Below, piece after piece: positions 4,731-56,096 of a DNA stretch of 64,000 bases. A model generated the notes under the pieces. The model saw only the letters and a list, made by a program, of their open reading frames with translations. It searched no databases and was not told the DNA's origin. This DNA is from Nanobdellota archaeon. Its GTDB lineage: Archaea; Nanobdellota; Nanobdellia; Pacearchaeales; GW2011-AR1. The translations under genes were made by a program, and so were the position numbers. How positions within the stretch are numbered: position 1 is the stretch's first letter; the number at the start of each line of letters is the position of its first letter. The stretch lies in assembly GCA_038045425.1 (NCBI GenBank), contig JBBSYD010000032.1, positions 36,417-100,416 on the forward strand. Reading direction: 5' to 3'.

Positions 4731-5165
4731 ATGACTTTAACTTATAGGTATAAGGAAGTGTATAGAACTAATAATATTCAAACTAGGACTCCTTCCATCC
4801 CTATGACTTTGTCTGGAAAGGGGATTAAATTTGAATTTACAGTCCTTATTGATTCTGGAGCAGATATTTCGGCAATTCCAAAACAGGTGGCTGAATTATT
4901 AGGATTGGATTTATCTGGGAAAAAAGAAGAAACATTCGGAATTGGAGGTTCTGCTTCTGCAGTTTCATCTAATATTCGTATAGATTTTGGAAAAGTTCAT
5001 GAAAAATATTCTGTGGATTTACCAGTTAAAGTAATTTTATCAGATTATGATTTTCCACCATTAATTGGAAGATCTGTATTTTTTGATAAGTTTAGAATAA
5101 CTTTTGATCAAGCTAAGTTTAATATTCATTTGAAAGCTAATACTAACAATAATCTTCTTGGCTAG
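4731..5165 (+). CDS. retropepsin-like aspartic protease
   Basis: LIDSGADISAIP carries the D-S/T-G-A active-site signature and a second GIGG region. Two-gene module with the upstream small ORF. Confidence 0.65.
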   Translation: MTLTYRYKEVYRTNNIQTRTPSIPMTLSGKGIKFEFTVLIDSGADISAIPKQVAELLGLDLSGKKEETFGIGGSASAVSSNIRIDFGKVHEKYSVDLPVKVILSDYDFPPLIGRSVFFDKFRITFDQAKFNIHLKANTNNNLLG

Positions 5166-5287
5166 AATAGTTAATTATATTCGGTAAATCTATTATTTCA
5201 AACAATAACCTTTATATATATATTCCAAAATTGTGAGTTTAAACCCCGCATAGGAAAATATAAATATAGATTATTACTTGTTAATTA

Positions 5288-6094
5288 ATGCATAAAAAGA
5301 GTGAAATAATATTTAGATTAAAAGAGTTAGAAAAGGAATTAGGAAGAAGACCTGTAAAAACAGATAGTCCTTCGCTTTATACCTTGTCAAGAAAATATTT
5401 TGGTACTTGGAATAATATGATGACTGAAGCAGGATATCAATGTAAATTATTTCAAATTCCTGTAACTCCTAAAGAGATTACTTCAGATTTAAGTTATTTT
5501 TTAGGATTAATGTCTACTGATGGGCACATACAAGTAATAAAACAAAGATGGCTGTACCGTGTTATGATGTATACTAGCGAAAAAGAAGAAGTAGAAATGA
5601 TATTAAATATTATTAAAAAGTTGTTTAGTTATACTGCTTCAGTTAGAGCAAGAAAAACAGGATTTTCTAAAAGACCAAATTATGAAATATACATATCTTC
5701 TAAAAAGATTGCATTATTTTTAAATTCGTTAGGAATTCCGATAGGAGCTAAATCCTATAATCTTTTAGTTCCTAAGATGTTCTTTGAGAATAAGCAAGAA
5801 TATTTTTGGGATTATTTAAGGGGAGTCTTTGATGGAGATGGTTCAATTGTTTTTAGTAATAATAATTTTAGCTTTAAAATCTCATCTGGTTCAGTTAGAT
5901 TTCTTGAGGGAATAAATAAGATTCTTATAGAGAAAGGATTTAAGAATTTTAAGATTTCTAAACAAGATGAGTATGTTTGGATTCTAAGAACAAATATAAA
6001 GGAAAATATTAAACAACTATATTCTTGTATTTATAATAATTCTTCGTTTTTTTATCCTCGAAAACAGTTAAAATGGTCTAAGCAGTATATTTAA
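5288..6094 (+). CDS. LAGLIDADG homing endonuclease (double motif) with N-terminal HEAR-like domain
   Basis: LGLMSTDGHI and LRGVFDGDGSI are two LAGLIDADG-type motifs. N-terminal YFGTWNNMMTEAGY resembles the homing-endonuclease-associated repeat. Confidence 0.7.
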   Translation: MHKKSEIIFRLKELEKELGRRPVKTDSPSLYTLSRKYFGTWNNMMTEAGYQCKLFQIPVTPKEITSDLSYFLGLMSTDGHIQVIKQRWLYRVMMYTSEKEEVEMILNIIKKLFSYTASVRARKTGFSKRPNYEIYISSKKIALFLNSLGIPIGAKSYNLLVPKMFFENKQEYFWDYLRGVFDGDGSIVFSNNNFSFKISSGSVRFLEGINKILIEKGFKNFKISKQDEYVWILRTNIKENIKQLYSCIYNNSSFFYPRKQLKWSKQYI

Positions 6095-6111
6095 AAATGT
6101 AAGTTTTTACA

Positions 6112-6271
6112 TAATTACATACCCTCCGTAGCTCAATGGCAGAGCGCCCGGCTGTAGTTAATATAACTAGCACAGACTTTCCATATGGAAACAGGATGAA
6201 GTGCGAACAGAGCATTTTCGTTAGAAAATAGCAGAACCCGGGCTACCCAAGTTCGATTCTCGGCGGGGGGA
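6112..6271 (+). tRNA. tRNA-Tyr (anticodon GTA) with an 89-nt intron after position 37 (intron about 6148..6236)
   Basis: Acceptor ccctccg/cgggggg with C1-G72 (archaeal Tyr identity). U8A9, D-arm gctc-aatggca-gagc, anticodon arm cccgg-ctgtag[intron]c-ccggg, T-arm ccaag-ttcgatt-ctcgg (one mismatch), discriminator A. Confidence 0.7.
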
Positions 6272-9695: not shown

Positions 9696-10097
9696 AATCT
9701 TAAACCACATTCTAATTCCAACTTTTCCATTTGTTCTGAGGAATTTGCAAATAGGCGAATCATGGGAAATCCTTCTTGATTATCTGAAGTTACGGCTGTG
9801 CCAGCTTGAGCAAGACCATTATCTAAGAAAACGTTGCTTCCAGAAAAAGTATAGTATTTTGTTTCGTCGATTACAGAACCTAAACCTCTTGAAATCGTAG
9901 GAGTTGCAAATAAGTTAATTCTTTGAACCATTGTCTGATATCTTTCAGCAGGTAATTCTTTCAGAACGCCTGAAAGATTTCTAGTATTCGTGATTCCTGT
10001 TGGAGTATAATGCCTTTCTACTAATCCAAGAGCCATGCTCTTTTATCTTTATTTGAGGTTTTTAAATAAATCGGTGAACTAGTTAAGTTTAAGAGAG

Positions 10098-11297
10098 ATG
10101 TGCTTGAATAATATCATGGTAGTATTTGATAAGGGAAGGGCAGTGTTTAAGCATGGGCCTGAAGATTTTATCGTTGAAGAAGTACAATTGGATGGAAAAA
10201 TATCTGAGATTTCTAGTTTGATGTCTGCGTTCGAGAACGCAGTTGTTGATTTTGGTAATTTGAATGTTAATGATAGAAGAGATTTCATTATGTTTGATCT
10301 TGAGAAAATAAATATTGATCATCTTAGCGCGATGAGTGAATTGTCTGAGAAGATTAAAAAACATCCTCATGAGATAGGCTACGGAGGAAGTAAGGATAAG
10401 GTTGCATGGACGTGTCAGAGGATTTCTGTGTTTAATCCTGATATGGAAAAGATAAAAGTATTTTCTCATCCTGGAATAATTCTTAAGAATTTTAGATGGG
10501 GGAAACATAAAATAAAGATTGGAGACTTGAAAGGAAATAGGTTTAGAGTAACTTTAAGAAATTTAGATGGGGCTGCGCTTAAGGTGTTAAGTAGAATAAG
10601 AAATACAGAATATATTCCTAATTTATTTGGAATGCAGAGATTTGGTTCTGTTAGAAATAATAATTTTCAAATAGGAAAATTAATTTTAAAGGGCAAATAT
10701 AAAGAAGCTATTTTTGCCTATCTAACTGGATATGGAGATAAAGAGGGCAAGGAAGTAAGAGATGCAAAGAGAAAATTAAAAGAAGAAAAGAATATTATTT
10801 CTGCAAAGGGTTATTTTCCAAAGGAACTTCATATGGAGCATAGGATAATAGAATATTTAGGTAATAATAAAAATTATTTTCTTGGGGCAATTGGAATGAT
10901 CGGAGAAAAAGTTCTTCTGATTATGTGCCAATCCGTTCAGAGTAGAATATTTAATGAGATTATTGAGAGAGCAATGGAAAGGGGAGTTGCTTCCAATACT
11001 GACTCTCTGGTTATTCCAGGATATGACGTTGGTAATTCGAAGAATAAGTTTGCAGAGATTGAGGAGGAAATTTTGAAAGAAAATGATTTAACTTGGGAGG
11101 ACTTTAGGAATTCGGACATACCTTTTCTAAGCCTAAAGGGGGCGGAGAGAAAAGCATTCCTTAGAGTTAGAGATTTGGAAATAGTTACTGAAGAAGATGA
11201 GATATTTGGGCCTGCAAAGAAAATAGTAATGTCCTTTGTTCTTGATTCTGGAAGCTATGCTACGACTTTCTTGGAATATTTTTTTGAATTGGAATAG
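10098..11297 (+). CDS. truD: tRNA pseudouridine(13) synthase TruD/Pus7
   Basis: PEDFIVEE at the N-terminus and GYGGSKDKVAWTCQRISV (GxKD catalytic Asp motif) are typical of TruD. Confidence 0.7.
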   Translation: MCLNNIMVVFDKGRAVFKHGPEDFIVEEVQLDGKISEISSLMSAFENAVVDFGNLNVNDRRDFIMFDLEKINIDHLSAMSELSEKIKKHPHEIGYGGSKDKVAWTCQRISVFNPDMEKIKVFSHPGIILKNFRWGKHKIKIGDLKGNRFRVTLRNLDGAALKVLSRIRNTEYIPNLFGMQRFGSVRNNNFQIGKLILKGKYKEAIFAYLTGYGDKEGKEVRDAKRKLKEEKNIISAKGYFPKELHMEHRIIEYLGNNKNYFLGAIGMIGEKVLLIMCQSVQSRIFNEIIERAMERGVASNTDSLVIPGYDVGNSKNKFAEIEEEILKENDLTWEDFRNSDIPFLSLKGAERKAFLRVRDLEIVTEEDEIFGPAKKIVMSFVLDSGSYATTFLEYFFELE

Positions 11298-29017: not shown

Positions 29018-30802
29018 ATGGAAAATAAGGAAAGGAGGTATGAGGAACTCATTCAAGAAGCAAAGAACTTTCTCAAATCCAATAGAAAGCATATAGGAGA
29101 ATCAATTCGTACTGGAGAAAGAGTAGTAGTAATCAAGTTCACAACTATCTCAGAATACTCCCCAGATTTAGCAGAAGCAATACTAGAAACCCCAGAACCA
29201 GTAATAATTCTTCTTGAACAAGCAATGGACGAACTTGGATTCATCAAAGACCTAAGAGTAAGATTCTCAGAACTTCCAAAAACTGCTAAAACTAAAGTCA
29301 GAGAAATAAGAGCAAAACATCTTGACCAATTGATAGAGGTAGAAGGAATTGTTCGTCAGATATCTGAAGTTAGACCACAAGTAATTAATGCTAGGTTTGA
29401 GTGCCCAACTTGTGGAGCAATTCTTTCAGTTCGCCAAAGGGATAGAAAATTCGTAAAACCTTCTAAATGTAGTTGTGGTTGTAAATATGATTTTAAATTA
29501 CTATCGAAAGAAATGGTAGATACTCAATATATTGTAGTTGAAGAATCGCCAGATTTGTTAGAATCTGAAAAACAATCTACTGAAATTAATGTTTTACTAA
29601 AAGAGGATTTGGTAGACCCAAAAATGCAGAAATATATAATTCCTGGTAACAAAATTAAAATAATAGGGATAATAAAAGATATTCAGACTCCATTAAAAGT
29701 TGGTTCGAAAACAATCTCCAAAAAGAAGTTTATGATAGAGGCAAATAATATTTTTTCTCTGGAAGAAACGTTTGAATGTCTTCCTCTCAGTGAAGAAGAT
29801 ACTAAGGAAATAAAAGAATTATCCACTGATCCTAACTTATTCAAAAAGCTTGTCGAAAGTATATCTCCCAGCGTATATGGAAAAGAAGAAATAAAAGAAA
29901 CTATTCTTTTGCAGTTATTCGGAGGTGTTGAAAATAAAAAATCTGGTTTAGAATTAGTAAGGGGTGAAATTAATGTTTTACTTGCTGGAGCTTCGGGAGT
30001 TGCAAAAACAACAATTCTTAAATTTGCTTCTTCAATAGCTCCTAAAGGGAAATATTTTCAATGTAGAAGATCTAATGGAAACATTTCTGCAAAAACGATA
30101 AAATATTTTGGTGAATCAAGTTTAGAACCAGGAATAATTGTTCTTTCAAATAATGGAATACTTTGTTTGGATGAAATAGAGGATATTAGTAAGAAGGATC
30201 AAGAATCAATTTATAATATACTGAAGGATCAATCTGTTGAGATACCTAAGGTAGGAACTAAAATTGATTTAAAAATAAATATTGGATTACTTGTAGCAAT
30301 AAGCCCGAAAAAAAGATTTTATAACTGCGTGCCATTTACGGATCAAATTAATATTTCTAAAGATTTACTAAATATGTTTGATATAGTTTTTATAATCCAT
30401 GATGAACCTAATGAACATAATGATGGAGAAATTGCATCTCGTGTTCTTCAAGAGCATAAACAAGAAGTAAATGCTGAGTCTATACCTCAAAAACTATTAA
30501 GAAAATATATATTTTATGCTAGACAAAAGATTAAACCTGTACGAACGGACATTGCAATTAAAGAAATTACCAAATTTTATTCTGAATTAAGACAGAGTAA
30601 CTCTAAATTTTCAGATGTGTATATTAATGTTAGAAATCCAGAGAGTATAATGAGATTAGCTGAGGCACACGCAAGAATGCGACTTTCCAATCAGGTAGAT
30701 TTAGTTGACGCCAGAAAAGCAATAGAATTGTTTACCGCATCTTTAAAAAGTCAAGGTGGGTTAGATCCTGATTCTGCGCTTGAAAAATATCCTGAAAATT
30801 AA
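29018..30802 (+). CDS. mcm: MCM-like AAA+ replicative helicase homolog (divergent, 594 aa)
   Basis: N-terminal C4 zinc finger (CPTCG...CSCGC) and OB region. Walker A GASGVAKTT, Walker B CLDEIED. NMFDIVFII sits where MCM has SRFDLIF, so the arginine-finger R is absent. Confidence 0.65.
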   Translation: MENKERRYEELIQEAKNFLKSNRKHIGESIRTGERVVVIKFTTISEYSPDLAEAILETPEPVIILLEQAMDELGFIKDLRVRFSELPKTAKTKVREIRAKHLDQLIEVEGIVRQISEVRPQVINARFECPTCGAILSVRQRDRKFVKPSKCSCGCKYDFKLLSKEMVDTQYIVVEESPDLLESEKQSTEINVLLKEDLVDPKMQKYIIPGNKIKIIGIIKDIQTPLKVGSKTISKKKFMIEANNIFSLEETFECLPLSEEDTKEIKELSTDPNLFKKLVESISPSVYGKEEIKETILLQLFGGVENKKSGLELVRGEINVLLAGASGVAKTTILKFASSIAPKGKYFQCRRSNGNISAKTIKYFGESSLEPGIIVLSNNGILCLDEIEDISKKDQESIYNILKDQSVEIPKVGTKIDLKINIGLLVAISPKKRFYNCVPFTDQINISKDLLNMFDIVFIIHDEPNEHNDGEIASRVLQEHKQEVNAESIPQKLLRKYIFYARQKIKPVRTDIAIKEITKFYSELRQSNSKFSDVYINVRNPESIMRLAEAHARMRLSNQVDLVDARKAIELFTASLKSQGGLDPDSALEKYPEN

Positions 30803-32208
30803 AATCTTCGTCCGCCGCCTCTAGAACCACCAAAGCTTCTGTTTCCACCAAAACTTCTGCCTCTTGATGAACTTTCTCCACCTCTACTTGAATATCCTCT
30901 GCCTCCACCTCTGCTATCTCTACCGAAACTTTTTCCTCCTGAACTTCCACCTGAACGTCTTTCTCCTCCGCCATATCCTCCGCTTCGAGGTCTGTCGCCT
31001 CCGAATCTTCTTCCTCCTGAACTTGGACGGCCGAATCTTCTCCCATATCCTCCATGCCCGCTGGATTCTTGATCGTCTCTTCTAAAATTAACAAATATCT
31101 TCTCCATGTCTGTTGGCATCTCTACTTTATCGATTTTTATTTCTGGGTCTCTTAGAACATCTCTGAAATTATCATAGTCTCTTACTGAAACGATGTTAAT
31201 AGCAATTCCATCTTCTCCTGCTCTTGCAGTTCTTCCTATTCTGTGAATGTAATCTTTACTGGATGAAGGTAAGTCATAATTGTATACGTGAGAGACGTTT
31301 TTAATGTCTAATCCTCTGGCTGCAACATCGGTACAAACTAAAACTGAGATTCTTTCTGCTTTGAATTTTTCCATAACATAGTTTCTCTTTGATTGACTTA
31401 ACCCGCCGTGAATTGGAATAGCATCAATTCCTTGTTTTTGTAAATTATTTGCTACAAAGTCCGTATTTCTTTGGGTGTTACAGAAAATCATAATCAATCC
31501 GGGATGTTCTTTCTTTAATAGATGAACTAAAAGAGAAAATTTCTCATCTTGAGGAACATCGTAATAGACTTGCTTTAATTTAGTAGGATCTACATATTGC
31601 TCGATTGCTATATATGTTGGAGAGTTCATATATTTCTTTACAAGATGTTCAATGTCTGGAGAAATTGTTGCAGAGAATAACATTGTTTGTCTTTGTTCTG
31701 GACATAATTTGATAATTTTTGTTACGTCATATATGAATCCCATATCGAGCATTCTGTCTGCTTCATCGAGAACAAGAGTTTTTACATGTCTTAAATCTAA
31801 AGTTCTTCTTTCTAGATGGTCAAGAATTCTTCCAGGAGTGCCAACAACTATGTCTGCATCCTGTAGATCATTAATTTGAGGATTTATTCCTGCTCCACCA
31901 TAAATTGCAACTACAAATAATTTTTTATGCTTTGCGAACTTGTGAATTGAATCTGCTACCTGTTCTGCTAATTCTCTTGTTGGGGTGAGAACAAGTGCTT
32001 GAATTCCTTTTCCTCTTTCGGCTTTATCAATTATACTTGCTCCGAATGCTAATGTCTTTCCAGAACCTGTTGCTGAACCTGCAATTATGTCTTTACCCTG
32101 CATCGCTAGTGGAATTGCTTTCTCTTGAATTTCTCGTGGGCCTTCAAAACCTTGATTTTTCAAAGTCAGAGAGAGCTCATCGCTTAGTCCTAATTTCTTA
32201 AATACCAT
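30799..32208 (-). CDS. DEAD-box ATP-dependent RNA helicase with C-terminal RG/G-rich tail
   Basis: Q motif (EIQEKAIP), AGSATGSGKT, DEAD, SAT, HRIGRTAR. C-terminal roughly 90 aa are Gly/Arg-rich. Confidence 0.85.
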   Translation of the reverse strand: MVFKKLGLSDELSLTLKNQGFEGPREIQEKAIPLAMQGKDIIAGSATGSGKTLAFGASIIDKAERGKGIQALVLTPTRELAEQVADSIHKFAKHKKLFVVAIYGGAGINPQINDLQDADIVVGTPGRILDHLERRTLDLRHVKTLVLDEADRMLDMGFIYDVTKIIKLCPEQRQTMLFSATISPDIEHLVKKYMNSPTYIAIEQYVDPTKLKQVYYDVPQDEKFSLLVHLLKKEHPGLIMIFCNTQRNTDFVANNLQKQGIDAIPIHGGLSQSKRNYVMEKFKAERISVLVCTDVAARGLDIKNVSHVYNYDLPSSSKDYIHRIGRTARAGEDGIAINIVSVRDYDNFRDVLRDPEIKIDKVEMPTDMEKIFVNFRRDDQESSGHGGYGRRFGRPSSGGRRFGGDRPRSGGYGGGERRSGGSSGGKSFGRDSRGGGRGYSSRGGESSSRGRSFGGNRSFGGSRGGGRRF

Positions 32209-32864: not shown

Positions 32865-32989
32865 ATAAACTTTTATTGAAACTGGCTTTGTCCGATAAGT
32901 AGGTTCTGTCCGAATAGTCAATAAAACTACCCTAGAGGACACAAGGGCGATTAAACCCTTATGAACCCGACTAGGCTACCCGAATATGA

Positions 32990-33193
32990 TTATTTTAGGC
33001 TCTGTAACAGATTTTTAAGATAAGTATATCTCTCAGAACGAGTATTCTTAATAGCTTCATATATACTTTTTGTGTAAGTCTTTCCTTCCAAATTATTATA
33101 GACATAAGTTTCTAATTTCTTCAATAATCTTATTTCTTTTTGTACACTTCTAGCTATTTTCATTATTTTCTTTTTAGCTTCCTTAGTCATCAT
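32990..33193 (-). CDS. small hypothetical protein (transposon cargo)
   Basis: 67-aa basic ORF. Confidence 0.3.
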   Translation of the reverse strand: MMTKEAKKKIMKIARSVQKEIRLLKKLETYVYNNLEGKTYTKSIYEAIKNTRSERYTYLKNLLQSLK

Positions 33194-33420
33194 ATAAAAT
33201 CAATTAGATTTAACTTTAAATTACCTTCCAACCTCTAGGAAGTGGTTAAATTAAAAAGTATATTTCTTACTCTAATAATGTTTATATAATTAGTATACTA
33301 ATTAACATAGGCAGTATGGTATGATGGGCGATATGCTTAATGCCCCCGAAAGGGATTCAACCGCCGAGGTTGCTGAAAGCTCAGACCCCATTAGAGCTGC
33401 CAAATTAGGATTTTTATAAT

Positions 33421-34965
33421 GTGGCAAGTTCAACATTAGGATTTAAGGTGGATGAAGAGAGATTAATAGTTTCTAACTTAAAAAAGTCATTTACTATTAT
33501 TTCAGAATATTCTAACCCAAAACAAAGAATTTTATCTAGACTGGAAATTAAAAAAGAAAGCAAAAAAGTTATTGTAAACTTCTACGCTACGGGCAAATGC
33601 TTGATTCAAGGTAGTGACGGAGAATTATTTGATTCCATTAAGAAGAGTATATTAGATGGTGGATTGGTCGAAATAAAAAATGAAAAACAACAAAAGTTTA
33701 TAGCAGAATTGAATGAAAATGATTTTTATAAAGAAAAAGAATTTATTGTTGGTTTTGACGAAGCAGGCATAGGAGAAACTATTGGTTCTGCAGTTTTCGC
33801 AGCAGTTATACTGCCTAGAGAAATTTTACATATATTTTCAGATTTAAGAAAAGATATTAAGTCTCTTTCTCCTTCTGAATTAAATTATTATTGTGAATTA
33901 ATAAAAAAGAAAGGCATTCGCTATGAGTATATAACTACTTCACCATATGAAGTCTGTAATTCAGGAATTACTAAAAATAGATTAATGGACAGAAAATATG
34001 TTGAATTAATAAGGAAGCTTGCACCGAATCTTAATAAAAATTATATTTTAATGTTAGATGATTATGGTGTAAGGGAAGATATAAGGGAATATTTGAAAAA
34101 CTTAGATAAACAAGGTATTACGTCTATATGCCGAGATAAACTAGACGAATATATAACTGCTTGTAAATTAGCTTCAATTATTGCAAGACATGTAAGATAT
34201 TCTGAAGTTCAAATGCTAGAGAAAAATAATCGTATTTTAATTGAAGGAAAAGAGATAAGTTTTGGAAAAGGAGGAAATGGAGAAGAAACCACTAACTGGC
34301 TTAAACAATTTAGGACTTTGTACCCGACACAAGACTTCCCAGATTTCATTAAAAAAGCATGGAGCAATGTGGTAGAAATAGAAAAGTCCATGCCTAGACA
34401 GGTAATTCCATTATCATTTACTTGCGATGGTTGTAAAAAGTCTTTAAAACGTATATTTGCATATCACACAAAAGATGAAGATAGCCTAAGATTCTATTGC
34501 TCTTTGTGTTATAAGCTATTAGAGAAAAACCTACTAAAAACAAGGGGGTTTCCATATATATTAGCTGATACAAATTCTCTAATAATCGGTACAATAAGCC
34601 ATGACCTTCGATGTTTAACATCTATTTTTGAAGGTTCGAAATTACTTATTCCCTATAAGATTATAGACGAAATCGATACAATAGGAAAAGGCAAGAAATT
34701 AGGAGCACATAAAGAATTGGAAAGATTGAAAGTTCTTGAAACAGAAGGAAAGATAAAACTTCATCATTGTGACTTTGAAGTCACCCACCCATTTGATGCA
34801 GATAAAAAGCTTTACGATTTAATAGCCAAAAATAATAGTTGTGCTCTTATTACTGCTGATAAAAATCTAGCTATTGCAGCTCAAACCAATGATTCTTTTG
34901 TTTTTCATCTTATAAATTATATCCCTGAATCTAAAATAGAATCTGATTCTACGAAATTGAATTAA
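33421..34965 (+). CDS. RNase HIII-like (TBP-like N-domain plus RNase H catalytic domain) fused to a zinc ribbon and a C-terminal PIN domain
   Basis: VIVNFYATGKCLIQGSD resembles the RNase HIII N-domain (ITAYKSGKVLFQG). GFDEAGIGETIGSAVFAAVIL, DIKSLS and CKLASIIARHVR parallel the RNase HII/HIII motifs (DEVG/DEAG, DSK, AASIIAR). CDGCKK...CSLC forms a zinc ribbon. The C-terminal PIN has acidic residues in LADTNSLI, IIDEID and ITADKNLA. Confidence 0.6.
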   Translation: MASSTLGFKVDEERLIVSNLKKSFTIISEYSNPKQRILSRLEIKKESKKVIVNFYATGKCLIQGSDGELFDSIKKSILDGGLVEIKNEKQQKFIAELNENDFYKEKEFIVGFDEAGIGETIGSAVFAAVILPREILHIFSDLRKDIKSLSPSELNYYCELIKKKGIRYEYITTSPYEVCNSGITKNRLMDRKYVELIRKLAPNLNKNYILMLDDYGVREDIREYLKNLDKQGITSICRDKLDEYITACKLASIIARHVRYSEVQMLEKNNRILIEGKEISFGKGGNGEETTNWLKQFRTLYPTQDFPDFIKKAWSNVVEIEKSMPRQVIPLSFTCDGCKKSLKRIFAYHTKDEDSLRFYCSLCYKLLEKNLLKTRGFPYILADTNSLIIGTISHDLRCLTSIFEGSKLLIPYKIIDEIDTIGKGKKLGAHKELERLKVLETEGKIKLHHCDFEVTHPFDADKKLYDLIAKNNSCALITADKNLAIAAQTNDSFVFHLINYIPESKIESDSTKLN

Positions 34966-34967
34966 TG

Positions 34968-37631
34968 TTATAAATTTGAGCTATAAGGTAAAGATTTTAT
35001 ATAATTCTCCATAAATTCCCAATCTGGATTACCTTTTTTGTCTTTTGGTAGTTTAATCTTCATTTTTTTCAGTTGAGAATTAACTATTGCTCTGCCATAG
35101 GAGAATTTATCTTTCATTTCAAAGTTGAATATTGTAATTAGGAACATAGCCACATCTTTTGTAATCTTATTGTCTTTTGTTCTTATAATATTAATCTTAT
35201 TTCCTGTGAAAAATGGTTCTTCTTGGTAAAATGCTCTAACTCCCTCTGCTCCGATTGTTATGCAATCCCCAATTTCAGGTATTTCCTCATCATGTAAAAT
35301 CTTACCAGCATAACCATTATTAAATGCACTACGAGTAATGTAATTAACTCCTCCCATAGAAAACTCTACGTTTACTTTATGAACAGGTGTTCCCAAAGTA
35401 ACATCAAAAATATCATTTACATTAAACTCTTTCCAGTTGTCGGTATTTATCTTTTTGTTTTCGTTCTTTTCAGAATAAATCTTATTCTCATTCAGAATCT
35501 CCATAAAAGTTAATTCGTCAATATTTTTGTCTAAGATATCAAGTTTTAATTTTATCTTGAATATAATGTAGTCTTTTATACTCTTTGTAAAAAGATTAGA
35601 TTCAAGATATGTATAATCTGTCTTGCTGTGTGCCTGAATAATCCACTCATCTCTTTGATTTATTTTAGTTTTAACGAGATGAAAACCATCACTAAATTTA
35701 TCTGGATTATTTAATTCCTCTAAAAGTTTCTTCCTTATATTTGCCCATTTATCCAAGGCGTCAGTTCTACCTCTATTTTTAGATAAAACCAAACCATCAT
35801 CTTCTAAATTATAAAAGACTATTTCTTTATTATTGTGCGGTTTATTTGTTTCAAAAACAGCTATTGCAGTGTGAGTTGTGGCGTTTGGTCTAAACAAGTC
35901 TTTTGGCATATTAATAACACATTTTAAGGTATGCTTTGATAAAATTCTCTCTCTGGTGTCCTCGTCTTGCATATAAGTTGAAAGAGGAGCAATAATCACA
36001 CCAAACCTACTAACTTTGTCTAATAAATTTTCTAAGAATTGGATTTCTTTTTTAGTTGGATTATCTTTATTATCTTCTCCCCCATAAGGCGGATTTATGA
36101 AACCTATTGTCGGAGATATTCCATCTTTTTTAAGATTACCTAAGATTTCATTTGCTTCTTTTGAAAATGAATCTACGTTGAATATCATGGATTTACCATC
36201 TCCTCTAAAAAGCATATTAGATATTGAAAGAGCATACATGGTAGAGCTTTTCTCAAATCCGATTAACTGGTGTTGTTTTATATTTTTAATTAATTCCGCT
36301 TTGTTTCTTATGTTTGATTGATTAATTTCTAAGATTATTTTATTCATAGCAGATATTAAAAATGCTCCAGTTCCACAGCACGTATCAAGTATTACATCAT
36401 TATTCTTTATTTCCACTAGTTCTGTAAATAGTTTAGTTATATGACTTGGTGTTAAAACTATTCCATTTTTCACATTGCTTATTCCTGCATATCTCAAAAA
36501 TTCTTCATAAAATTTACCTAAGATATCATAATTTGTTTCTTTAGAGAATAAGGGAATAACATTTTTATCCAATTCTTCTAAAATTTCTTTTAAGATGTCT
36601 GTATTGTTTAGGTCTTGGTCTGTCTTGATAAAGGATAGTTCATTTGTTAAAACTTCTATTTTGTCCTTTGGTATCTTCTCATCTTTTAATATTTGAGTTA
36701 TTGTAGTTGGAATATTATTTATTATAGTCTTAGGATTCCAACCAATATATCCATCTTTAAAGTCGTTCTTATCTCCTCTGGTAAATAAACAAATCATTAA
36801 ACCGCTAAGTAAAACAGGTCTTTTTTGAGAATCTAAAGAACGAAGTTTATTGTTTATCTTCTTTGAAGATTCAGATACTTCTCTAATCAATCTTTCCATA
36901 TCTACATTTTCAAAAAATGAGAGGTATTCTTCTTCGTTCAATATTTCTTTAGTTTCTATATCTTTTATCTCGTTCTTATTTATAATAAAAGTAGAAATAA
37001 GATGGCTATACAAATCAAGGATATTACCAGATACGGCTATCCCAACAATCTTCCAATTCTTCAAATACTTTCTAGTTGTTTCAGGTAAGCTACTAACATA
37101 AGTATCTGTAAAGAAAGACAGATAATGTTTTATTCCATCTATTGCATAATTTTCAGGGTCGTTTCCTTCTTTAGACTGATGTTGCTTAATTGTATCTTTA
37201 TTTTCAAGCAAAATTATTAATTTGTTTGCTTCATTGATATATAACAAATCTGGCTCTCCACGATTTCCAGTTTTTCTTTTACTTGCTTTATCTAAAATAG
37301 ATTGAATGACTTTATTATCTGTTTTTTTAATATCCCAAGAGTTCTTATATTTTTTATTATCTTTTATAAAATTATATAAAAATATATCTTTCTTCGCTTC
37401 ATTTTTTCTTTCGTTACTCATGTCTTTTCCTCCAAGAATTTCTCTATAAGCTTTTCCACTTTGTCCGATTTGTTTATTGAGTTTTCTTCGCAGAAGTCGT
37501 TGAATCTTTTGAGAGTTTCTGGAGCTAGAGTTACACTTAAATGCCCCTTTTTCACCTCTCCTCTCCTCATAGCTTAATGATAAGTTATTACTTTTTATAT
37601 CTTGCGTATCCATATTATTAATGTTACTCAT
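34968..37631 (-). CDS. Type IIG restriction-modification enzyme (single chain: PD-(D/E)xK endonuclease, gamma-class N6-adenine methyltransferase and target-recognition domain)
   Basis: N-terminal GEPDLLYI...LIILLENKD is a PD-ExK motif. VLDTCCGTGAFLISA is MTase motif I and GFINPPYGG is motif IV (NPPY). The C-terminal roughly 230 aa are HsdS-like TRD. Size and domain order resemble MmeI. Confidence 0.7.
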   Translation of the reverse strand: MSNINNMDTQDIKSNNLSLSYEERRGEKGAFKCNSSSRNSQKIQRLLRRKLNKQIGQSGKAYREILGGKDMSNERKNEAKKDIFLYNFIKDNKKYKNSWDIKKTDNKVIQSILDKASKRKTGNRGEPDLLYINEANKLIILLENKDTIKQHQSKEGNDPENYAIDGIKHYLSFFTDTYVSSLPETTRKYLKNWKIVGIAVSGNILDLYSHLISTFIINKNEIKDIETKEILNEEEYLSFFENVDMERLIREVSESSKKINNKLRSLDSQKRPVLLSGLMICLFTRGDKNDFKDGYIGWNPKTIINNIPTTITQILKDEKIPKDKIEVLTNELSFIKTDQDLNNTDILKEILEELDKNVIPLFSKETNYDILGKFYEEFLRYAGISNVKNGIVLTPSHITKLFTELVEIKNNDVILDTCCGTGAFLISAMNKIILEINQSNIRNKAELIKNIKQHQLIGFEKSSTMYALSISNMLFRGDGKSMIFNVDSFSKEANEILGNLKKDGISPTIGFINPPYGGEDNKDNPTKKEIQFLENLLDKVSRFGVIIAPLSTYMQDEDTRERILSKHTLKCVINMPKDLFRPNATTHTAIAVFETNKPHNNKEIVFYNLEDDGLVLSKNRGRTDALDKWANIRKKLLEELNNPDKFSDGFHLVKTKINQRDEWIIQAHSKTDYTYLESNLFTKSIKDYIIFKIKLKLDILDKNIDELTFMEILNENKIYSEKNENKKINTDNWKEFNVNDIFDVTLGTPVHKVNVEFSMGGVNYITRSAFNNGYAGKILHDEEIPEIGDCITIGAEGVRAFYQEEPFFTGNKINIIRTKDNKITKDVAMFLITIFNFEMKDKFSYGRAIVNSQLKKMKIKLPKDKKGNPDWEFMENYIKSLPYSSNL

Positions 37632-37654
37632 GTTATTTATAGTATTAATATTAT

Positions 37655-38887
37655 TTATATCTTTGCTTCCATCTCAACAATAAAGTCAGGTTTAATTCCT
37701 CTACAAAACATTTCCATAATTACACAGCAGATATTATGGCAAATTACTTTACATAAAACCTCATTTACTTGAGCGTTCCATTTCTTAGAACGAACAGAAT
37801 CGCCAAACTTAGATTTTATCATATACACCGAGGTCTCCGCGTTTGACCTCTGGTGATATGATTGTAAAAATTCCTCATTGTGTAAAGCAAAATAATGATA
37901 AAGTCTTTTCCAGATTCCACCTTTTCGACTTGGAGTAGAATTTATCTTAAATGGAATAAATGCCTTAGTTCCACTATTTTCTATTAACTCTAAATTATCC
38001 CTTGATAAGTAGGCTTTATCCGCACTTAATTCTTGCATATCAAAGAACTCTTTAGCTGTTTGATATAATTGTTTAAGCTGTGGGCAGTCATTATCAAATT
38101 CAGAAGTTATCTTAACGCTGGTAATTCCATTTGTAATTGTTCCAGTAATGAAATGACATTTAACCCATTTTCTTGAACTTATGGCTTTTCCATGCTTGAA
38201 TGAATACCATCTTTGAAAATTAGAAGTTCCAAATCCCGTGCTGTCTATGGCAAATTTCCTATCAATCTCTTTTAGAGGCAAGGCAGTGATTGTTACTAAT
38301 TGGCTAAGTAAATCGGTTAATTCTTCTTTATTGAAATAATCTGACATAGAACTTCTTGGTGTGATACTTTCTATGAAGTTACTTGATTTTGCCTGTTCCA
38401 TATCTGACGTGAATCTTCTACTTGAAAAAGTGGAATAAACTTTGAAAATCATAGAATAAATAGTATCTCTCAAAGAATTTTTAGGTTTACCAAAAGTATA
38501 AGGTCTCTCTTGTATTTTGCTTGTTAAGTCTGCTAGGAGCTTCATAAACAACTCTTTCTCTTTCGTTTGAGCTAGATTATAGTTATGCCAATCTTGAGCG
38601 TAGGTGACCTTCTTAGTAGCGGTTATAGTCACATTACCTTGCTTGTCTACTTCGTGAGTTACTATAAACTCAACTGCCCAAATATGTTTACACTTACATC
38701 CTCTCTCTTTATGGTCTTTGCAATTACATGAAGTATTATCTCCTCTGCTCTTAACAAAGTAAAATCCTGCTCCAGACTGGCTTGGAACTTTCCATCTACC
38801 TTTTTCATCTTGAACTATTCTTGAAGTCTGAGCTATTACTAAGCCTCTTTGTTTTCTTACTTCGATTGGATTATATTGTGTTTCCAT
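37655..38887 (-). CDS. DDE transposase (IS4/IS5-like DDE_Tnp_1) with N-terminal SWIM zinc finger
   Basis: CNCKDHKERGCKCKHIW is a SWIM finger (CxCx(n)CxH). The DDE candidates are AIDSTGF, LSADKAY and RSNAETSVYMIKSKFG. Confidence 0.7.
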   Translation of the reverse strand: METQYNPIEVRKQRGLVIAQTSRIVQDEKGRWKVPSQSGAGFYFVKSRGDNTSCNCKDHKERGCKCKHIWAVEFIVTHEVDKQGNVTITATKKVTYAQDWHNYNLAQTKEKELFMKLLADLTSKIQERPYTFGKPKNSLRDTIYSMIFKVYSTFSSRRFTSDMEQAKSSNFIESITPRSSMSDYFNKEELTDLLSQLVTITALPLKEIDRKFAIDSTGFGTSNFQRWYSFKHGKAISSRKWVKCHFITGTITNGITSVKITSEFDNDCPQLKQLYQTAKEFFDMQELSADKAYLSRDNLELIENSGTKAFIPFKINSTPSRKGGIWKRLYHYFALHNEEFLQSYHQRSNAETSVYMIKSKFGDSVRSKKWNAQVNEVLCKVICHNICCVIMEMFCRGIKPDFIVEMEAKI

Positions 38888-38999
38888 GTTATATTTAGAT
38901 ACCTAATCTATATAAATCTTTCGGTATCTAAAATCTTACTTGGAAGTAGATAAATTAGACACCTAAAAGTTTATAAATCGTAGATACCTAAAATAATTA

Positions 39000-39167
39000 A
39001 TGAAGTTGCAAAAGCAGGTGAGTCGAGTATACAAAGGAGAAGAATACGAGAAATTTTGGATAGTTATACCTTCTAAGCTTGTAAAACTACTTGAATGGAA
39101 GACTGGACAAGATTTAGAGGGCGATGTGAAAGATGGGAAGCTCATAGTTGAAAAGAAGAAAAAATAA
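39000..39167 (+). CDS. AbrB/MazE-like swapped-hairpin small protein (55 aa)
   Basis: VYKGEEYEKFWIVIPSKLVKLLEWKTGQDLEGDVKDGKLIVEK has an SpoVT/AbrB-like pattern. Below the ORF-track cutoff. Confidence 0.4.
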   Translation: MKLQKQVSRVYKGEEYEKFWIVIPSKLVKLLEWKTGQDLEGDVKDGKLIVEKKKK

Positions 39168-39257
39168 GGAGATAAAAATTTAGGTGATGAAAAATAAATA
39201 TTTATTCGGTTAATTCTTAATAAAAATATATTTAAACTGCTGTATCAATCAAATTAA

Positions 39258-39599
39258 ATGAAAGAAGTTGAATTAAGACAAATTATAAAAAATAGAATAA
39301 ATTTTAGAGAAGTAAATGCTAATGTAATGTATAATGGATTTGATATGTCTGGATATAATAATAGTGGTTTTTCTAATTTAGAGATATTAGCTAAGTTTCA
39401 AGATTTAATGAATTTAAATTGTGGAACTGAAAATAGGACTCCAAATCTTCACTTACCTATATTTTGGAAAGGTAGCGGACAGATTATCAAATTAGATAAT
39501 TCTGGAAAATTTGAAGTAATAGAAGAGCTTAATGGAGAAACAACGGAAGACATTATATTCAAAATACTTAAACTGCAAAATACTGCACTTCTTGATTAA
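39258..39599 (+). CDS. hypothetical protein; last gene inside the transposon
   Basis: 113-aa ORF ending 2 bp before the right subterminal repeat. Confidence 0.4.
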   Translation: MKEVELRQIIKNRINFREVNANVMYNGFDMSGYNNSGFSNLEILAKFQDLMNLNCGTENRTPNLHLPIFWKGSGQIIKLDNSGKFEVIEELNGETTEDIIFKILKLQNTALLD

Positions 39600-39720
39600 A
39601 TTTCTGTCCGATAAGTCTTACTTTTTAGCTACTATTCGGACAAAGCCATTGAAACTGCTAGATTTAAAAACCCTGAAAACAATAAGTAAATGTATAAATA
39701 ATTAGGTTTAACTTTTTATT

Positions 39721-42633: not shown

Positions 42634-42748
42634 GCGCTAGTAGTTTAGTGGTAAAACGGCTCGTTGCCAACTCTAGGAGTCTAAAGAACTACAATTGTTT
42701 AGACTAGGTAAAAACGAGCAGTCTCGAGTCCGATTCTCGACTTGCGCA
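42634..42748 (+). tRNA. tRNA-Gly (anticodon GCC) with an intron of about 44 nt at or next to the anticodon loop
   Basis: Acceptor gcgctag/cttgcgc (one U-U mismatch), D-arm gttt-agtggta-aaac, anticodon stem gctcg/cgagc separated by about 44 nt, loop ttgccaa, T-arm tcgag-tccgatt-ctcga, discriminator A. Confidence 0.6.
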
Positions 42749-45864: not shown

Positions 45865-45935
45865 GGCCCATTAGGCTAATGGTAGACCGGTTCGTTTACA
45901 CCGAACATGCGGAGGTCCGATTCCTCCATGGGCCA
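45865..45935 (+). tRNA. tRNA-Val (anticodon TAC)
   Basis: Acceptor ggcccat/atgggcc (perfect), anticodon arm gttcg-tttacac-cgaac, T-arm ggagg-tccgatt-cctcc, discriminator A. The D-stem is imperfect. Confidence 0.65.
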
Positions 45936-45938
45936 CTT

Positions 45939-56011: not shown

Positions 56012-56023
56012 TTTGATTATTGG

Positions 56024-56096
56024 TAGCAGGTGTTGGAATTGAACCAAACATTTCCAGGATGTAATCCTGGCGGGCTAACCATTACCCCAACCTGCC
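56024..56096 (-). tRNA. tRNA, predicted Val (anticodon TAC), with encoded CCA at 56021..56023
   Basis: Reverse complement reads ggcaggt-tg-gggt-aatggtta-gccc-g-ccagg-attacat-cctgg-aaatg-tttgg-ttcaatt-ccaac-acctgct-a-cca. This gives G1-U72 wobble and one T-stem mismatch. Confidence 0.55.

Follow-up and report, generated by a model that had tools for sequence, protein, structure and literature searches.

Bacterial RNase HIII/H3 proteins (rnhC; 2d0a, 4py5, 3vn5) consist of an N-terminal TBP-like domain followed by a type-2 RNase H domain, carry a YxTGxLxIQG-type motif in the N-domain and a G-x-G-(E/D) element after the DE catalytic pair, and lack the junction tyrosine. All these features, including the domain order, recur in the protein analysed here. 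It differs from RNase HIII/H3 in having an additional zinc ribbon and PIN domain, in scoring higher on the archaeal-type RNase HII model than on the rnhC model, and in the fourth carboxylate, which is Asp in most members of its family and Glu in RNase HIII. Moreover, the context of RNase HIII is a housekeeping one, whereas the present gene resides among restriction and mobile-element genes. In comparison with archaeal RNase HII (T. kodakarensis 1io2, P. horikoshii 1uax), GRGP is replaced by G-x-G-E, the junction tyrosine is lost, domains are added at both the N- and C-terminus, and the score falls short of the model's cut-off (58 versus 123 bits). PIN proteins of the PINA, MJ1533, TTHA0540, Fcf1, Nob1 and SMG6 type, which play roles in rRNA processing or Holliday-junction metabolism, combine their PIN domain with different partners (ATPase, KH or TRAM).

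The gene encodes a 514-amino acid protein initiated from GTG (33421..34965, + strand) in a Nanobdellota archaeon; the whole 64-kb stretch of DNA analysed is referred to as the window. The identical NCBI entry is listed as 'hypothetical protein AABX11_02765 [Nanoarchaeota archaeon]'. An earlier note on this DNA proposed a fusion of a TBP-like N-domain, an RNase H domain, a zinc ribbon and a PIN domain, and both the profile matches and the AlphaFold model (pLDDT 83) bear out this layout. All motifs quoted in the note were found in the ORF and map to conserved columns in the alignment of 46 members, which was used for residue conservation (a 9-member alignment was used in the search for related loci). 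The TBP-like N-domain, a candidate RNA/DNA-hybrid binder, comprises residues 1–85 (33421..33675), the type-2 RNase H catalytic domain residues 99–323 (33715..34389), the four-cysteine zinc ribbon residues 333–365 (34417..34515), and the PIN nuclease domain residues 378–498 (34552..34914), all on the + strand. The Pfam match to the RnlA N-domain is sub-threshold. The zinc-ribbon cysteines C335, C338, C360 and C363 are conserved in 46, 46, 44 and 46 of the 46 members, respectively; the ribbon forms beta-strands in the AlphaFold model, and Zn-ribbon Pfam matches are scattered among the members. Both active sites, DEDD and the acidic site of the PIN domain, are intact, and their catalytic residues are conserved, being kept in 38–45 of 46 diverged relatives. 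As for the suggested novelty of the RNase H-PIN fusion, its description and biology are new, while the bare detection of the domain pair is not, as the JGI automatic annotation already names the two-domain composition 'ribonuclease HII/rRNA-processing protein FCF1'. The present analysis also corrects the start-codon annotations of several database entries.

The RNase H core was matched by the Pfam profile RNase_HII (PF01351) over residues 110–317 (E=1.8e-14; 54.5 bits versus the gathering cut-off of 25.8), as were all 46 family members. The catalytic motifs are DEAG (D113, E114), DIKSLS (D145, K147), LDDYG (D213) and KLDEY (D242). Of the four catalytic carboxylates, D113, E114 and D213 are each conserved in 45 of the 46 members and D242 in 38, and a further seven have Glu in place of the last one; the query, with Asp at this position, thus does not have the DEDE site of RNase HIII. 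The TBP-like substrate-binding domain at the N-terminus is an RNase HIII feature, and its motif VNFYATGKCLIQG could be aligned to YYYKTGSLLIQG of Aquifex RNase H3. The DE pair is followed by G116-x-G118-E119, in which E119 (present in 45/46 members) matches the RNase H3 Glu84 element; Glu84 of Ta-RNase H3 reads two 2'-OH groups (PMC4132731). In the members, the GxG motif takes the form G-(K/T/A/I)-G-E and not GRG, and the column corresponding to the junction tyrosine of RNase H2 (GSGY) is occupied by A, P, L, S or G, with Tyr in none of the 46. Both equivalog models gave scores below their cut-offs: 57.9 bits versus 123.3 for RNase HII (TIGR00729; 217 bits for a canonical RNase HII control) and 46.1 bits versus 161.2 for RNase HIII (TIGR00716, rnhC; 30–69 bits for the relatives). 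Hence, the designation "RNase HIII-like" given in the earlier note holds for the TBP-like N-domain, the G-x-G-E element and the missing junction tyrosine, but does not extend to either equivalog, HIII or HII. The core carries RNase H3-type substrate determinants, which make up its candidate specificity. By score, this type-2 RNase H core is nearer to the archaeal-type RNase HII model, yet it is combined with a TBP-like domain and H3-type determinants. Such a combination is relevant to the question of how RNase HIII arose.

The C-terminal domain gave a score just under the cut-off for Pfam PIN_4 (PF13638; residues 382–489; 20.7 bits versus 21.9), and only 9 of 46 members matched this profile at E<=0.01. 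The PIN fold comes with four conserved acidic residues, D383 (in LADTN), E417 (in IIDEID), D461 and D480 (in ITADKN), found in 44, 42, 42 and 42 of the 46 members; D461 was missing from the list in the earlier note. The PIN superfamily includes FEN-type 5' nucleases, and RNase HIII acts in Okazaki fragment processing in Bacillus. Both facts fit the view that the protein is a housekeeping enzyme of replication and repair, whose H3-like module would remove Okazaki primers or R-loops and whose PIN domain would trim the flap or the RNA, the restriction neighbours being incidental. We regard such a role as unlikely. The closest fold type is VapC/PINA/Fcf1, and neither the helical arch nor the H3TH module of FEN-type enzymes is present.

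The location of the gene also speaks against a housekeeping role. A 6.8-kb transposon (32883..39648) carries it as cargo, along with a type IIG restriction enzyme. The earlier reading that the gene sits on a transposon beside a restriction-modification enzyme is substantiated by inverted repeats at the two ends and by a target-site duplication of 7 bp. The left repeat, TGGCTTTGTCCGATAAGTAG (20 nt; 32883..32902, + strand), is 90% complementary to positions 39629–39648, where the right repeat CTACTATTCGGACAAAGCCA is located (39629..39648, - strand), and a second, inner copy of the left-repeat core motif occurs at 32907–32918. The motif TGTCCGAWWAGT is present exactly four times in the 64 kb, only at the two transposon ends. 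The same heptamer, TTGAAAC, directly adjoins the outer end of each inverted repeat, as the left (32876..32882) and the right copy (39649..39655) of the target-site duplication. The element encodes a 410-amino acid IS5-like DDE transposase (37655..38887, - strand; Pfam DDE_Tnp_1, E=6.7e-16), which scored 120 bits with the NCBIfam IS5 family model, below the cut-off of 140. The DDE transposase, the inverted repeats and the target-site duplication agree with an IS5-type element. Unusual for IS5 are its length of 6.8 kb, with cargo genes, and a duplication of 7 bp. The cargo restriction-methyltransferase of type IIG has 887 amino acids and a specificity domain (34968..37631, - strand; PADLOC REase_MTase_IIG, E=2.4e-51; Pfam N6_Mtase). 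Its gene is convergent with the nuclease gene, at a distance of 2 bp, and the two are not co-transcribed. Of the remaining ORFs, one of 67 amino acids (32990..33193, - strand) is divergent from the nuclease gene and has no significant family match, and one of 113 amino acids (39258..39599, + strand) lies near the right end. The same trio of nuclease, IIG homologue and transposase, with similar repeats, was found in a relative's locus (L069), in which the IIG homologue adjoins the nuclease homologue and the transposase is 37% identical to that of the window; no target-site duplication was evident for this element. DPANN archaea have tiny genomes, and in these organisms a cargo-carrying transposon moves a restriction enzyme together with a nuclease.

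The family is large and patchily distributed over DPANN, Archaeoglobi, Thermococci, Thaumarchaeota, Asgard archaea and more than 12 bacterial phyla. Since many of the sequences come from metagenome bins, the taxonomy given for some of them may be incorrect. Archaeal and bacterial copies show up to 82% identity, and frameshifted or split copies occur (L041, L034, L036). The PIN-bearing form is horizontally mobile. Taken together, the sub-cut-off HII and HIII scores, patchy spread, high cross-domain identity and damaged copies do not resemble a housekeeping gene. The window contains no further RNase H2-type gene or canonical rnhB, which could favour a housekeeping function. Viral contigs contained neither the protein nor the leader RNA described below. 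A metagenome search with a first pattern with a variable gap returned nothing, and a second pattern returned one locus.

Analysis of the gene neighbourhoods, in which genes of the relatives' loci were called by a greedy longest-ORF approximation, supports the earlier suggestion of a defence-associated rather than housekeeping gene. The neighbours of PIN-bearing forms are mostly restriction and mobility families (Methylase_S 8, ResIII 7, N6_Mtase 6, HSDR_N 3, GmrSD 2, Cas1 2), as well as resolvases and transposases, and DpnI and Cas3 are also among them. These forms adjoin or lie within type I, IIG, GmrSD and BREX-related restriction operons. Genes for type I M, S or R subunits were found up to three genes away in 8 of 33 PIN-bearing loci versus 0 of 24 PIN-less loci (one-sided hypergeometric p ~0.008). 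In nine loci (L004, L008, L010, L012, L013, L014, L022, L025, L035), a restriction-system gene precedes the nuclease gene on the same strand with a gap of at most 5 bp or an overlap of 3–10 bp, and the operon overlap speaks against a housekeeping enzyme. In L004 the gene is inserted between hsdM and hsdS, and in Archaeoglobales it separates two genes of a BREX-related system, those for the DUF1156 methyltransferase and the DUF499 ATPase (PMC12839542).

PIN-less forms have different neighbours, such as SecA, ABC transporters and CoA ligase, in a stable, lineage-conserved housekeeping synteny. This synteny would support the housekeeping view, but it is not shared by the PIN-bearing form. As the PIN-less sister form looks housekeeping, the RNase H module may have an ordinary ancestry. 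In a neighbour-joining tree, PIN-bearing and PIN-less forms are not cleanly resolved, so a single gain of the zinc ribbon-PIN module is not claimed. Around a third of the PIN-bearing loci (e.g., L026, L030, L031, L007) have no recognisable defence neighbour; in L007, which comes from a closed DPANN genome of 648 kb, genes for aminoacyl-tRNA synthetase, GatB and the proteasome surround it, as expected for a housekeeping enzyme. None of the PADLOC-DB v2 defence models matched the query or the distant member P0009 at E<=0.01.

The embedding in type I and BREX-related operons and the position beside Cas3, all of which use ATP-dependent translocases, could also mean that the protein is an accessory factor, not an effector itself, with its RNase H clearing R-loops or transcripts ahead of the translocating HsdR, DUF499 helicase or Cas3. 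This appears improbable, and more so than the housekeeping role. The gene is found as well beside the non-translocating IIG, GmrSD and DpnI, its position in the operons varies, and the conserved active site of the PIN domain is given no part to play.

In one DPANN subgroup, the gene is predicted to be transcribed with a conserved structured 5' leader. A GC-rich candidate leader had been pointed out previously, and conservation as well as covariation confirm it at 33310..33401 (+ strand). The RNA folds into helices P1-P2-P3 with a three-way junction and two hairpins, P4, which has a GNRA cap, and P5. It was found in 8 of 8 DPANN relatives; in their alignment 94.5% of cells are paired and seven pairs show compensatory changes. 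None of 500 shuffles reached the observed values, and slid controls gave 0–1 covarying pairs. The mean identity of the leader is 81%, versus 62% for the coding DNA. The single-sequence fold is no more stable than that of shuffled sequences (z=-0.45), so energy alone would dismiss the leader, and only the comparative data rescued it. Rfam contained no match at E<=1 for the window or at E<=10 for four other loci. The covariance model detected no further copies in 1 Mb of relatives' loci, which indicates that the leader is absent upstream of the bacterial and other archaeal members. A C/D-box sRNA, an H/ACA sRNA, a tRNA-like element and a K-turn were considered for the leader on visual inspection. 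None of these readings was adopted, as UGAUGG is Watson-Crick paired with covariation in P2 and no consistent D or ACA box was present. The 5' end of the RNA element is preceded, at a distance of ~25 nt, by a TATA-like box, TTTATATAA (33281..33289, + strand), which occurs at an equal distance in all seven aligned relatives and presumably serves as the promoter. A putative Shine-Dalgarno-like AGGA (33407..33410, + strand) precedes the GTG start by 10 nt. To our knowledge, few cis-regulatory RNAs are known in archaea; the leader represents a new covariation-supported structured RNA motif from these organisms.

Such a leader, more conserved than the coding sequence and located directly upstream of it like type III antitoxin genes, raises the question of whether the locus is a selfish addiction module. 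The PIN domain would then act as the toxin and the leader RNA as a cis antitoxin or processing substrate, stabilising the transposon or restriction island and not defending the cell. PIN is the commonest toxin fold (PMC5499597), the gene is found on a transposon and near integrases, and the search for a conserved protein partner, whether one encoded downstream or an antitoxin, was negative. However, the leader is present in a single copy without repeats, as opposed to the tandem repeat array of type III systems, and several loci lack a terminator between leader and ORF, the gap being only 10 nt in L065 and L069. Furthermore, the leader is limited to the one DPANN subgroup, with no counterpart upstream of any other member, and a toxin role would leave the conserved intact RNase H3-like module unexplained. 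Pure addiction seems to us a doubtful explanation, on a par with the housekeeping one. It is also not exclusive of defence, as many such modules abort infection.

The gene is most likely an immunity gene and not a housekeeping RNase H. On balance, we favour the interpretation that its product is a mobile 'two-headed' nuclease of defence islands, in which a probable hybrid-cleaving head is joined to a PIN head. The N-domain and the RNase H core would bind RNA/DNA hybrids, such as replication primers or R-loops of the invading DNA, and the core would cut the RNA strand of these hybrids in a manner like RNase H3 or H1 rather than remove single ribonucleotides. The PIN head may cut the adjoining single-stranded RNA, so that both heads together would block priming or expression of the invader. 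Unleashed on host RNA, the nuclease could serve as a second-line effector of the abortive-infection type, backing the linked restriction system. The probable function of the leader RNA is to regulate expression of the potentially toxic enzyme or to restrain the enzyme.

A bolder and only tentative proposal, which we think may well prove wrong, is that the proteins constitute a new immune-effector family with a link to restriction and BREX-type systems. The RNase H3-like module would sense RNA/DNA hybrids of the invader and the PIN domain would destroy RNA. In DPANN, the effector would be governed by a hitherto unknown structured RNA. This RNA, the GNRA-capped three-way junction, exceeds the protein in conservation and would work either as a cis antitoxin or as a switch responding to a ligand or a protein. 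On the favoured interpretation as well, a hybrid-recognising nuclease of the RNase H type would join the accessory effectors of restriction and BREX-like systems, and RNA/DNA hybrids (primers, R-loops) would be a target or signal in prokaryotic immunity.

Among known defence systems, the RnlA and LsoA (RNase LS) toxins have been described as 'two-headed RNases' (Anantharaman et al. 2013, PMC3710099). In the present protein the RNase head is PIN and not HEPN, the RNase H2-type domain is complete and active-looking, and no RnlB-like antitoxin gene accompanies it. Among abortive-infection proteins, a type-2 RNase H fold has a precedent in lactococcal AbiI, with its structure-predicted RNase HII-like domain (PMC13064643). 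TBP-like, zinc-ribbon or PIN domains have not been reported in AbiI, and no defence model in PADLOC, a library expected to include Abi models, matches the present family. With regard to genetic organisation, the family resembles the backup effectors of the PrrC/RloC type (PMC3710099, PMC12839542), as its genes likewise lie between or after hsdM, hsdS and hsdR, or between DUF1156 and DUF499, and are often translationally coupled. The PrrC-like coupling to a restriction-modification operon is seen in the relatives, whereas in the window the IIG gene is adjacent but convergent. The folds are unrelated, since the present protein contains neither the ABC ATPase nor HEPN, and its regulatory link to the restriction complex is a putative one.

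The nuclease ORF occupies positions 33421..34965 of the plus strand (GTG start, 514 aa) in a stretch of about 31% G+C from a DPANN archaeon, and an identical protein has been deposited as a hypothetical protein from a 'Nanoarchaeota archaeon' metagenome bin. Profile searches recovered Pfam RNase_HII above its gathering score at residues 110-317 (E=1.8e-14), a PIN_4 match slightly under its cut-off at residues 382-489 (20.7 bits vs 21.9), and a weak match to the RnlA toxin N-terminal domain at residues 26-77. The AlphaFold model, computed from nine homologues with a mean pLDDT of 83, contains four modules: the TBP-like N-domain (1-85), the type-2 RNase H core (99-323), the zinc ribbon (333-365) and the PIN domain (378-498). 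An alignment of 46 full-length relatives, 20-71% identical to the query, retains the RNase H carboxylates (D113, E114 and D213 in 45/46 each; D242 in 38/46, with Glu in seven more), the DxK motif (D/N145, K147), the ribbon cysteines (C335, C338 and C363 in 46/46, C360 in 44/46) and the PIN acidic residues (D383 in 44/46; E417, D461 and D480 in 42/46 each). The protein has two intact nuclease sites, and the ORF, its four-domain architecture and the zinc ribbon are as the earlier note had read them.

The residues around the RNase H site point to the substrate. After the DE pair comes G116-x-G118-E119, whose E119 is kept in 45/46 relatives; its equivalents in the RNase H3-substrate complex are G81, K82, G83 and E84, of which Glu84 reads two consecutive 2'-OH groups, while in RNase H2 the space of Glu84 is occupied by a tyrosine enforcing RNA-DNA junction specificity (PMC4132731). 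That tyrosine is absent from the query family: the aligned column (archaeal GSGY) holds A, P, L, S or G, and Tyr in 0/46 relatives. As in RNase H3, an N-domain motif is present (VNFYATGKCLIQG, aligning with YYYKTGSLLIQG of the Aquifex enzyme), with the aromatic position Y55 filled by Tyr in 41 members and by Phe in five. Because of the G-x-G-E motif, the missing junction tyrosine and the N-domain motif with Y55, the enzyme would be expected to cut hybrids like RNase H3 or H1, without excising single ribonucleotides. The label 'RNase HIII-like' thus holds for these determinants and fails for formal membership, as the query reaches only 46 bits against the rnhC cut-off of 161. It scores 58 bits against the cut-off of 123 for archaeal-type RNase HII, its relatives likewise fall under both cut-offs (a canonical RNase HII control gave 217 bits), and the query formally belongs to neither family.

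A word-indexed search returned ten relatives only, and when the family profile was run with HMMER against all 1.84 billion representatives, 107 proteins came back at E<1e-30. About fifty of the cluster representatives are full length (480-535 aa) and about thirty-five, of ~300-330 aa, comprise only the N-domain and the RNase H core. The hosts among species-representative genomes, many of which are metagenome bins, include Woese-, Pace- and Undinarchaeota, Archaeoglobus, Geoglobus, Thermococci, Thermoplasmatales, Methanomassiliicoccales, Nitrososphaerales, Nitrosopumilus and Odinarchaeota, as well as many bacterial phyla, including WOR-3, Chloroflexota, Planctomycetota, Acidobacteriota, Dictyoglomota, Thermotogota, Nitrospirota and Thermodesulfatator. 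In a rough neighbour-joining tree the whole family stands apart from canonical RNase HII, with PIN-bearing and PIN-less forms interleaved. This wide spread, identities that can reach 79-82% across 385-459 residues between archaeal and bacterial copies, and frameshifted or split copies at three loci (L041, L034, L036) together form the pattern of a gene that is dispensable and moves horizontally. Among the copies found, one alone comes from a cultured organism, Thermodesulfatator autotrophicus S606 (L041 55-1634, NZ_LSFI01000032); it consists of 174-aa and 340-aa ORFs, split apparently by a frameshift, and has a serine recombinase and a GmrSD restriction gene as neighbours. A 420-aa variant in Dictyoglomaceae (L057, L058, L061; focal genes at ~9760-11023) joins the N-domain and RNase H core to a ~130-aa C-terminal extension with neither zinc ribbon nor PIN, in a conserved, non-defence neighbourhood.

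The literature searched, including the PIN superfamily classification and the TBP-domain and HEPN surveys, describes no RNase H2-type/PIN fusion, as the earlier note had supposed, and no restriction linkage of one; the two enzymatic domains have already been caught by automatic annotation (JGI 'ribonuclease HII/rRNA-processing protein FCF1'). The earlier note had also called RNase HIII rare in archaea; the TBP-domain survey lists just two putative archaeal sequences of it.

The gene in the window is carried by a transposon. The motif TGTCCGAWWAGT occurs in exactly four copies in the 64 kb, at two sites only, which form imperfect 20-nt terminal inverted repeats at 32883-32902 (TGGCTTTGTCCGATAAGTAG) and 39629-39648 (its complement). 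Their outer ends are abutted by the heptamer TTGAAAC (32876-32882 and 39649-39655), a target-site duplication. The repeats and the duplication substantiate the proposed location on a transposon beside a restriction-modification enzyme. Within the 6,766-bp element lie a 67-aa ORF, the nuclease gene with its leader, a type IIG restriction-methyltransferase of 887 aa (PADLOC E=2.4e-51) whose gene is convergent with that of the nuclease, 2 bp away, a DDE transposase of the IS5-like type and a 113-aa ORF. The trio recurs, rearranged, on the metagenome contig L069, where the leader RNA again precedes the nuclease homologue; the IIG enzyme there shares 33% identity with its counterpart in the window (E=4e-108) and the transposase 37% (E=1e-78), and inverted repeats with the similar core TTTGACCGAAAAGT bound the set. 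A family of cargo transposons therefore moves a restriction enzyme together with the nuclease. Between the IIG gene and the transposase of L069 lies a 393-aa ORF (4989-6170, minus strand) whose C-terminus has clustered cysteines (CNYCVYKSIC). In the window, a second short GC-rich patch (32920-32990), immediately interior to the left end of the transposon, holds the hairpin AAGGG-N8-CCCTT followed by a T-run on the minus strand; transcription of the 67-aa ORF may terminate there.

Linkage to restriction systems extends well beyond this element. ORFs were called, approximately, in 58 non-redundant loci, 34 with the zinc ribbon-PIN module and 24 without. Up to three genes away from the PIN-bearing form, the leading Pfam families were Methylase_S and DEAD (8 each), ResIII (7), N6_Mtase and Helicase_C (6 each), SWI2_SNF2 (5), Eco57I (4), HSDR_N and HsdM_N (3 each), and, twice each, Cas1, GmrSD_N, N6_N4_Mtase, DUF4411, resolvases and transposases. 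No restriction family was among the top 25 Pfam families around the PIN-less form, whose neighbours are SecA, ABC-transporter permeases, CoA ligase and kinases in synteny kept within lineages. An independent local search found type I M, S and R genes within three genes of 8/33 PIN-bearing and 0/24 PIN-less copies (one-sided hypergeometric p ~0.008, our own calculation). At nine loci the nuclease gene either starts at most 5 bp behind a same-strand gene of a restriction system or shares 3-10 bp with its end: hsdM (L004, L035), hsdS (L010, L012), a type I methyltransferase or specificity gene of cluster c0 (L025), a type I fragment (L014), or the DUF1156 methyltransferase of a BREX-related system (L008, L013, L022; PMC12839542), with a DUF499 ATPase downstream in L022. 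Other neighbours are GmrSD (L016, L041), DpnI (L003/L005), an N6_N4 methyltransferase (L033), Cas3, Cas6 and Cas1 (L012, L023, L021), SNF2 with HNH (L019), and serine or tyrosine recombinases. Since at least 10 different restriction-type systems are involved, the associations cannot reflect one inherited operon. The neighbourhoods support the suggested defence association. About one third of the loci (e.g., L026, L030, L031, L007) have no defence neighbour, no conserved partner protein was found around the nuclease gene in the loci, the gene was absent from the viral contigs searched, and PADLOC holds no model for the family. On the Pacearchaeota contig L002 (same record as L006), the fusion gene comes after an entire hsdM-hsdS-hsdR cluster of type I and is followed directly, on the same strand, by a type-1 RNase H gene of 131 aa (PF00075; 11703-12098).

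These neighbourhoods bear on what the nuclease does. A housekeeping role in processing primers or R-loops would suit the PIN-less relatives in their lineage-conserved synteny; however, the PIN-bearing copies are mobile, broken in places and located beside restriction genes, and we regard this role as unlikely. A helper that clears R-loops for translocating restriction motors appears more doubtful still. We favour, with some reserve and on computational grounds, an immunity nuclease cutting both hybrid RNA and single-stranded RNA.

The GC-rich leader (33310..33401) alone folds no better than shuffled sequence (z=-0.45) and matches no Rfam family. In the DPANN subgroup, with proteins of 41-71% identity, each of the eight loci has a near-identical element directly 5' of the ORF. 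A TATA-like box is found ~25 nt 5' of the element in 7/7 loci aligned through the promoter region, and also in L069, and the start codon follows the element at a distance of only 10-40 nt; by this placement it must be the 5' leader of the nuclease mRNA. Its mean pairwise identity is 81%, vs 62% for coding DNA, and higher in every pair. In the alignment of these eight related sequences, a five-helix structure, with P1, P2 and P3 stacked and a three-way junction bearing P4 and P5, has 94.5% of its cells paired and compensatory changes in seven pairs, a level reached by 0/500 shuffles (slid controls, 0-1 pairs). Internal loops include invariant GA dinucleotides, and the P4 cap is GAAA, GCAA or GUAA in 7/8 sequences (the loop of L069 is longer), variation such as a true GNRA tetraloop would be predicted to show. 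The structured leader that the earlier note had put forward is thus borne out by covariation, and is a candidate new structured RNA motif. A search of 1 Mb of locus sequence with its covariance model gave no copies besides these eight, and the RNA is therefore specific to the DPANN subgroup and single copy. That the leader serves as an RNA antitoxin in cis, making the locus an addiction module, seems improbable. In the database, P0002, P0006 and P0008 (L065 5578-, L002/L006 ~9923- and L001/L007 ~9917-) are annotated with N-terminal 'extensions' (MPRKGSIAEVAE..., MPPQGIQPLRLL...) that are translated leader RNA, so their start codons were mis-called; the true starts lie at the downstream M(S/A)S.TF motif.

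Elsewhere in the window, the Rfam tRNA model matches 42634-42748 and 6122-6271 (115 and 150 nt), not called by ARAGORN and probably intron-containing tRNA genes, which are common in DPANN archaea. Two tRNA-Val(TAC) genes in opposite orientation, ~10 kb apart (45865-45936, plus; 56021-56096, minus), might mark an inversion or integrated element. A DEAD-box helicase (30799-32208, minus) ends in a ~90-residue tail of GG/RGG/SSRGG repeats, a low-complexity extension unusual for an archaeal helicase. GC skew is strongly positive (0.2-0.37) across most of the window, falling to approximately zero or less in just three stretches (30-38 kb, 42-44 kb, 54-56 kb); minus-strand genes predominate among the ORFs called at 30-38 kb, so the skew there tracks the coding strand.

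[quoted passage not shown] The nuclease might directly attack primers and R-loops of invaders or, alternatively, act as a second-line effector of the abortive-infection type. Precedents exist in PrrC/RloC, in the HEPN and PIN 'backup' nucleases of restriction/BREX loci and in 'two-headed RNases' (PMC3710099, PMC12839542). AbiI provides a further one, an abortive-infection protein with an RNase HII-like fold (PMC13064643). We class the nuclease with the accessory nucleases linked to restriction systems.
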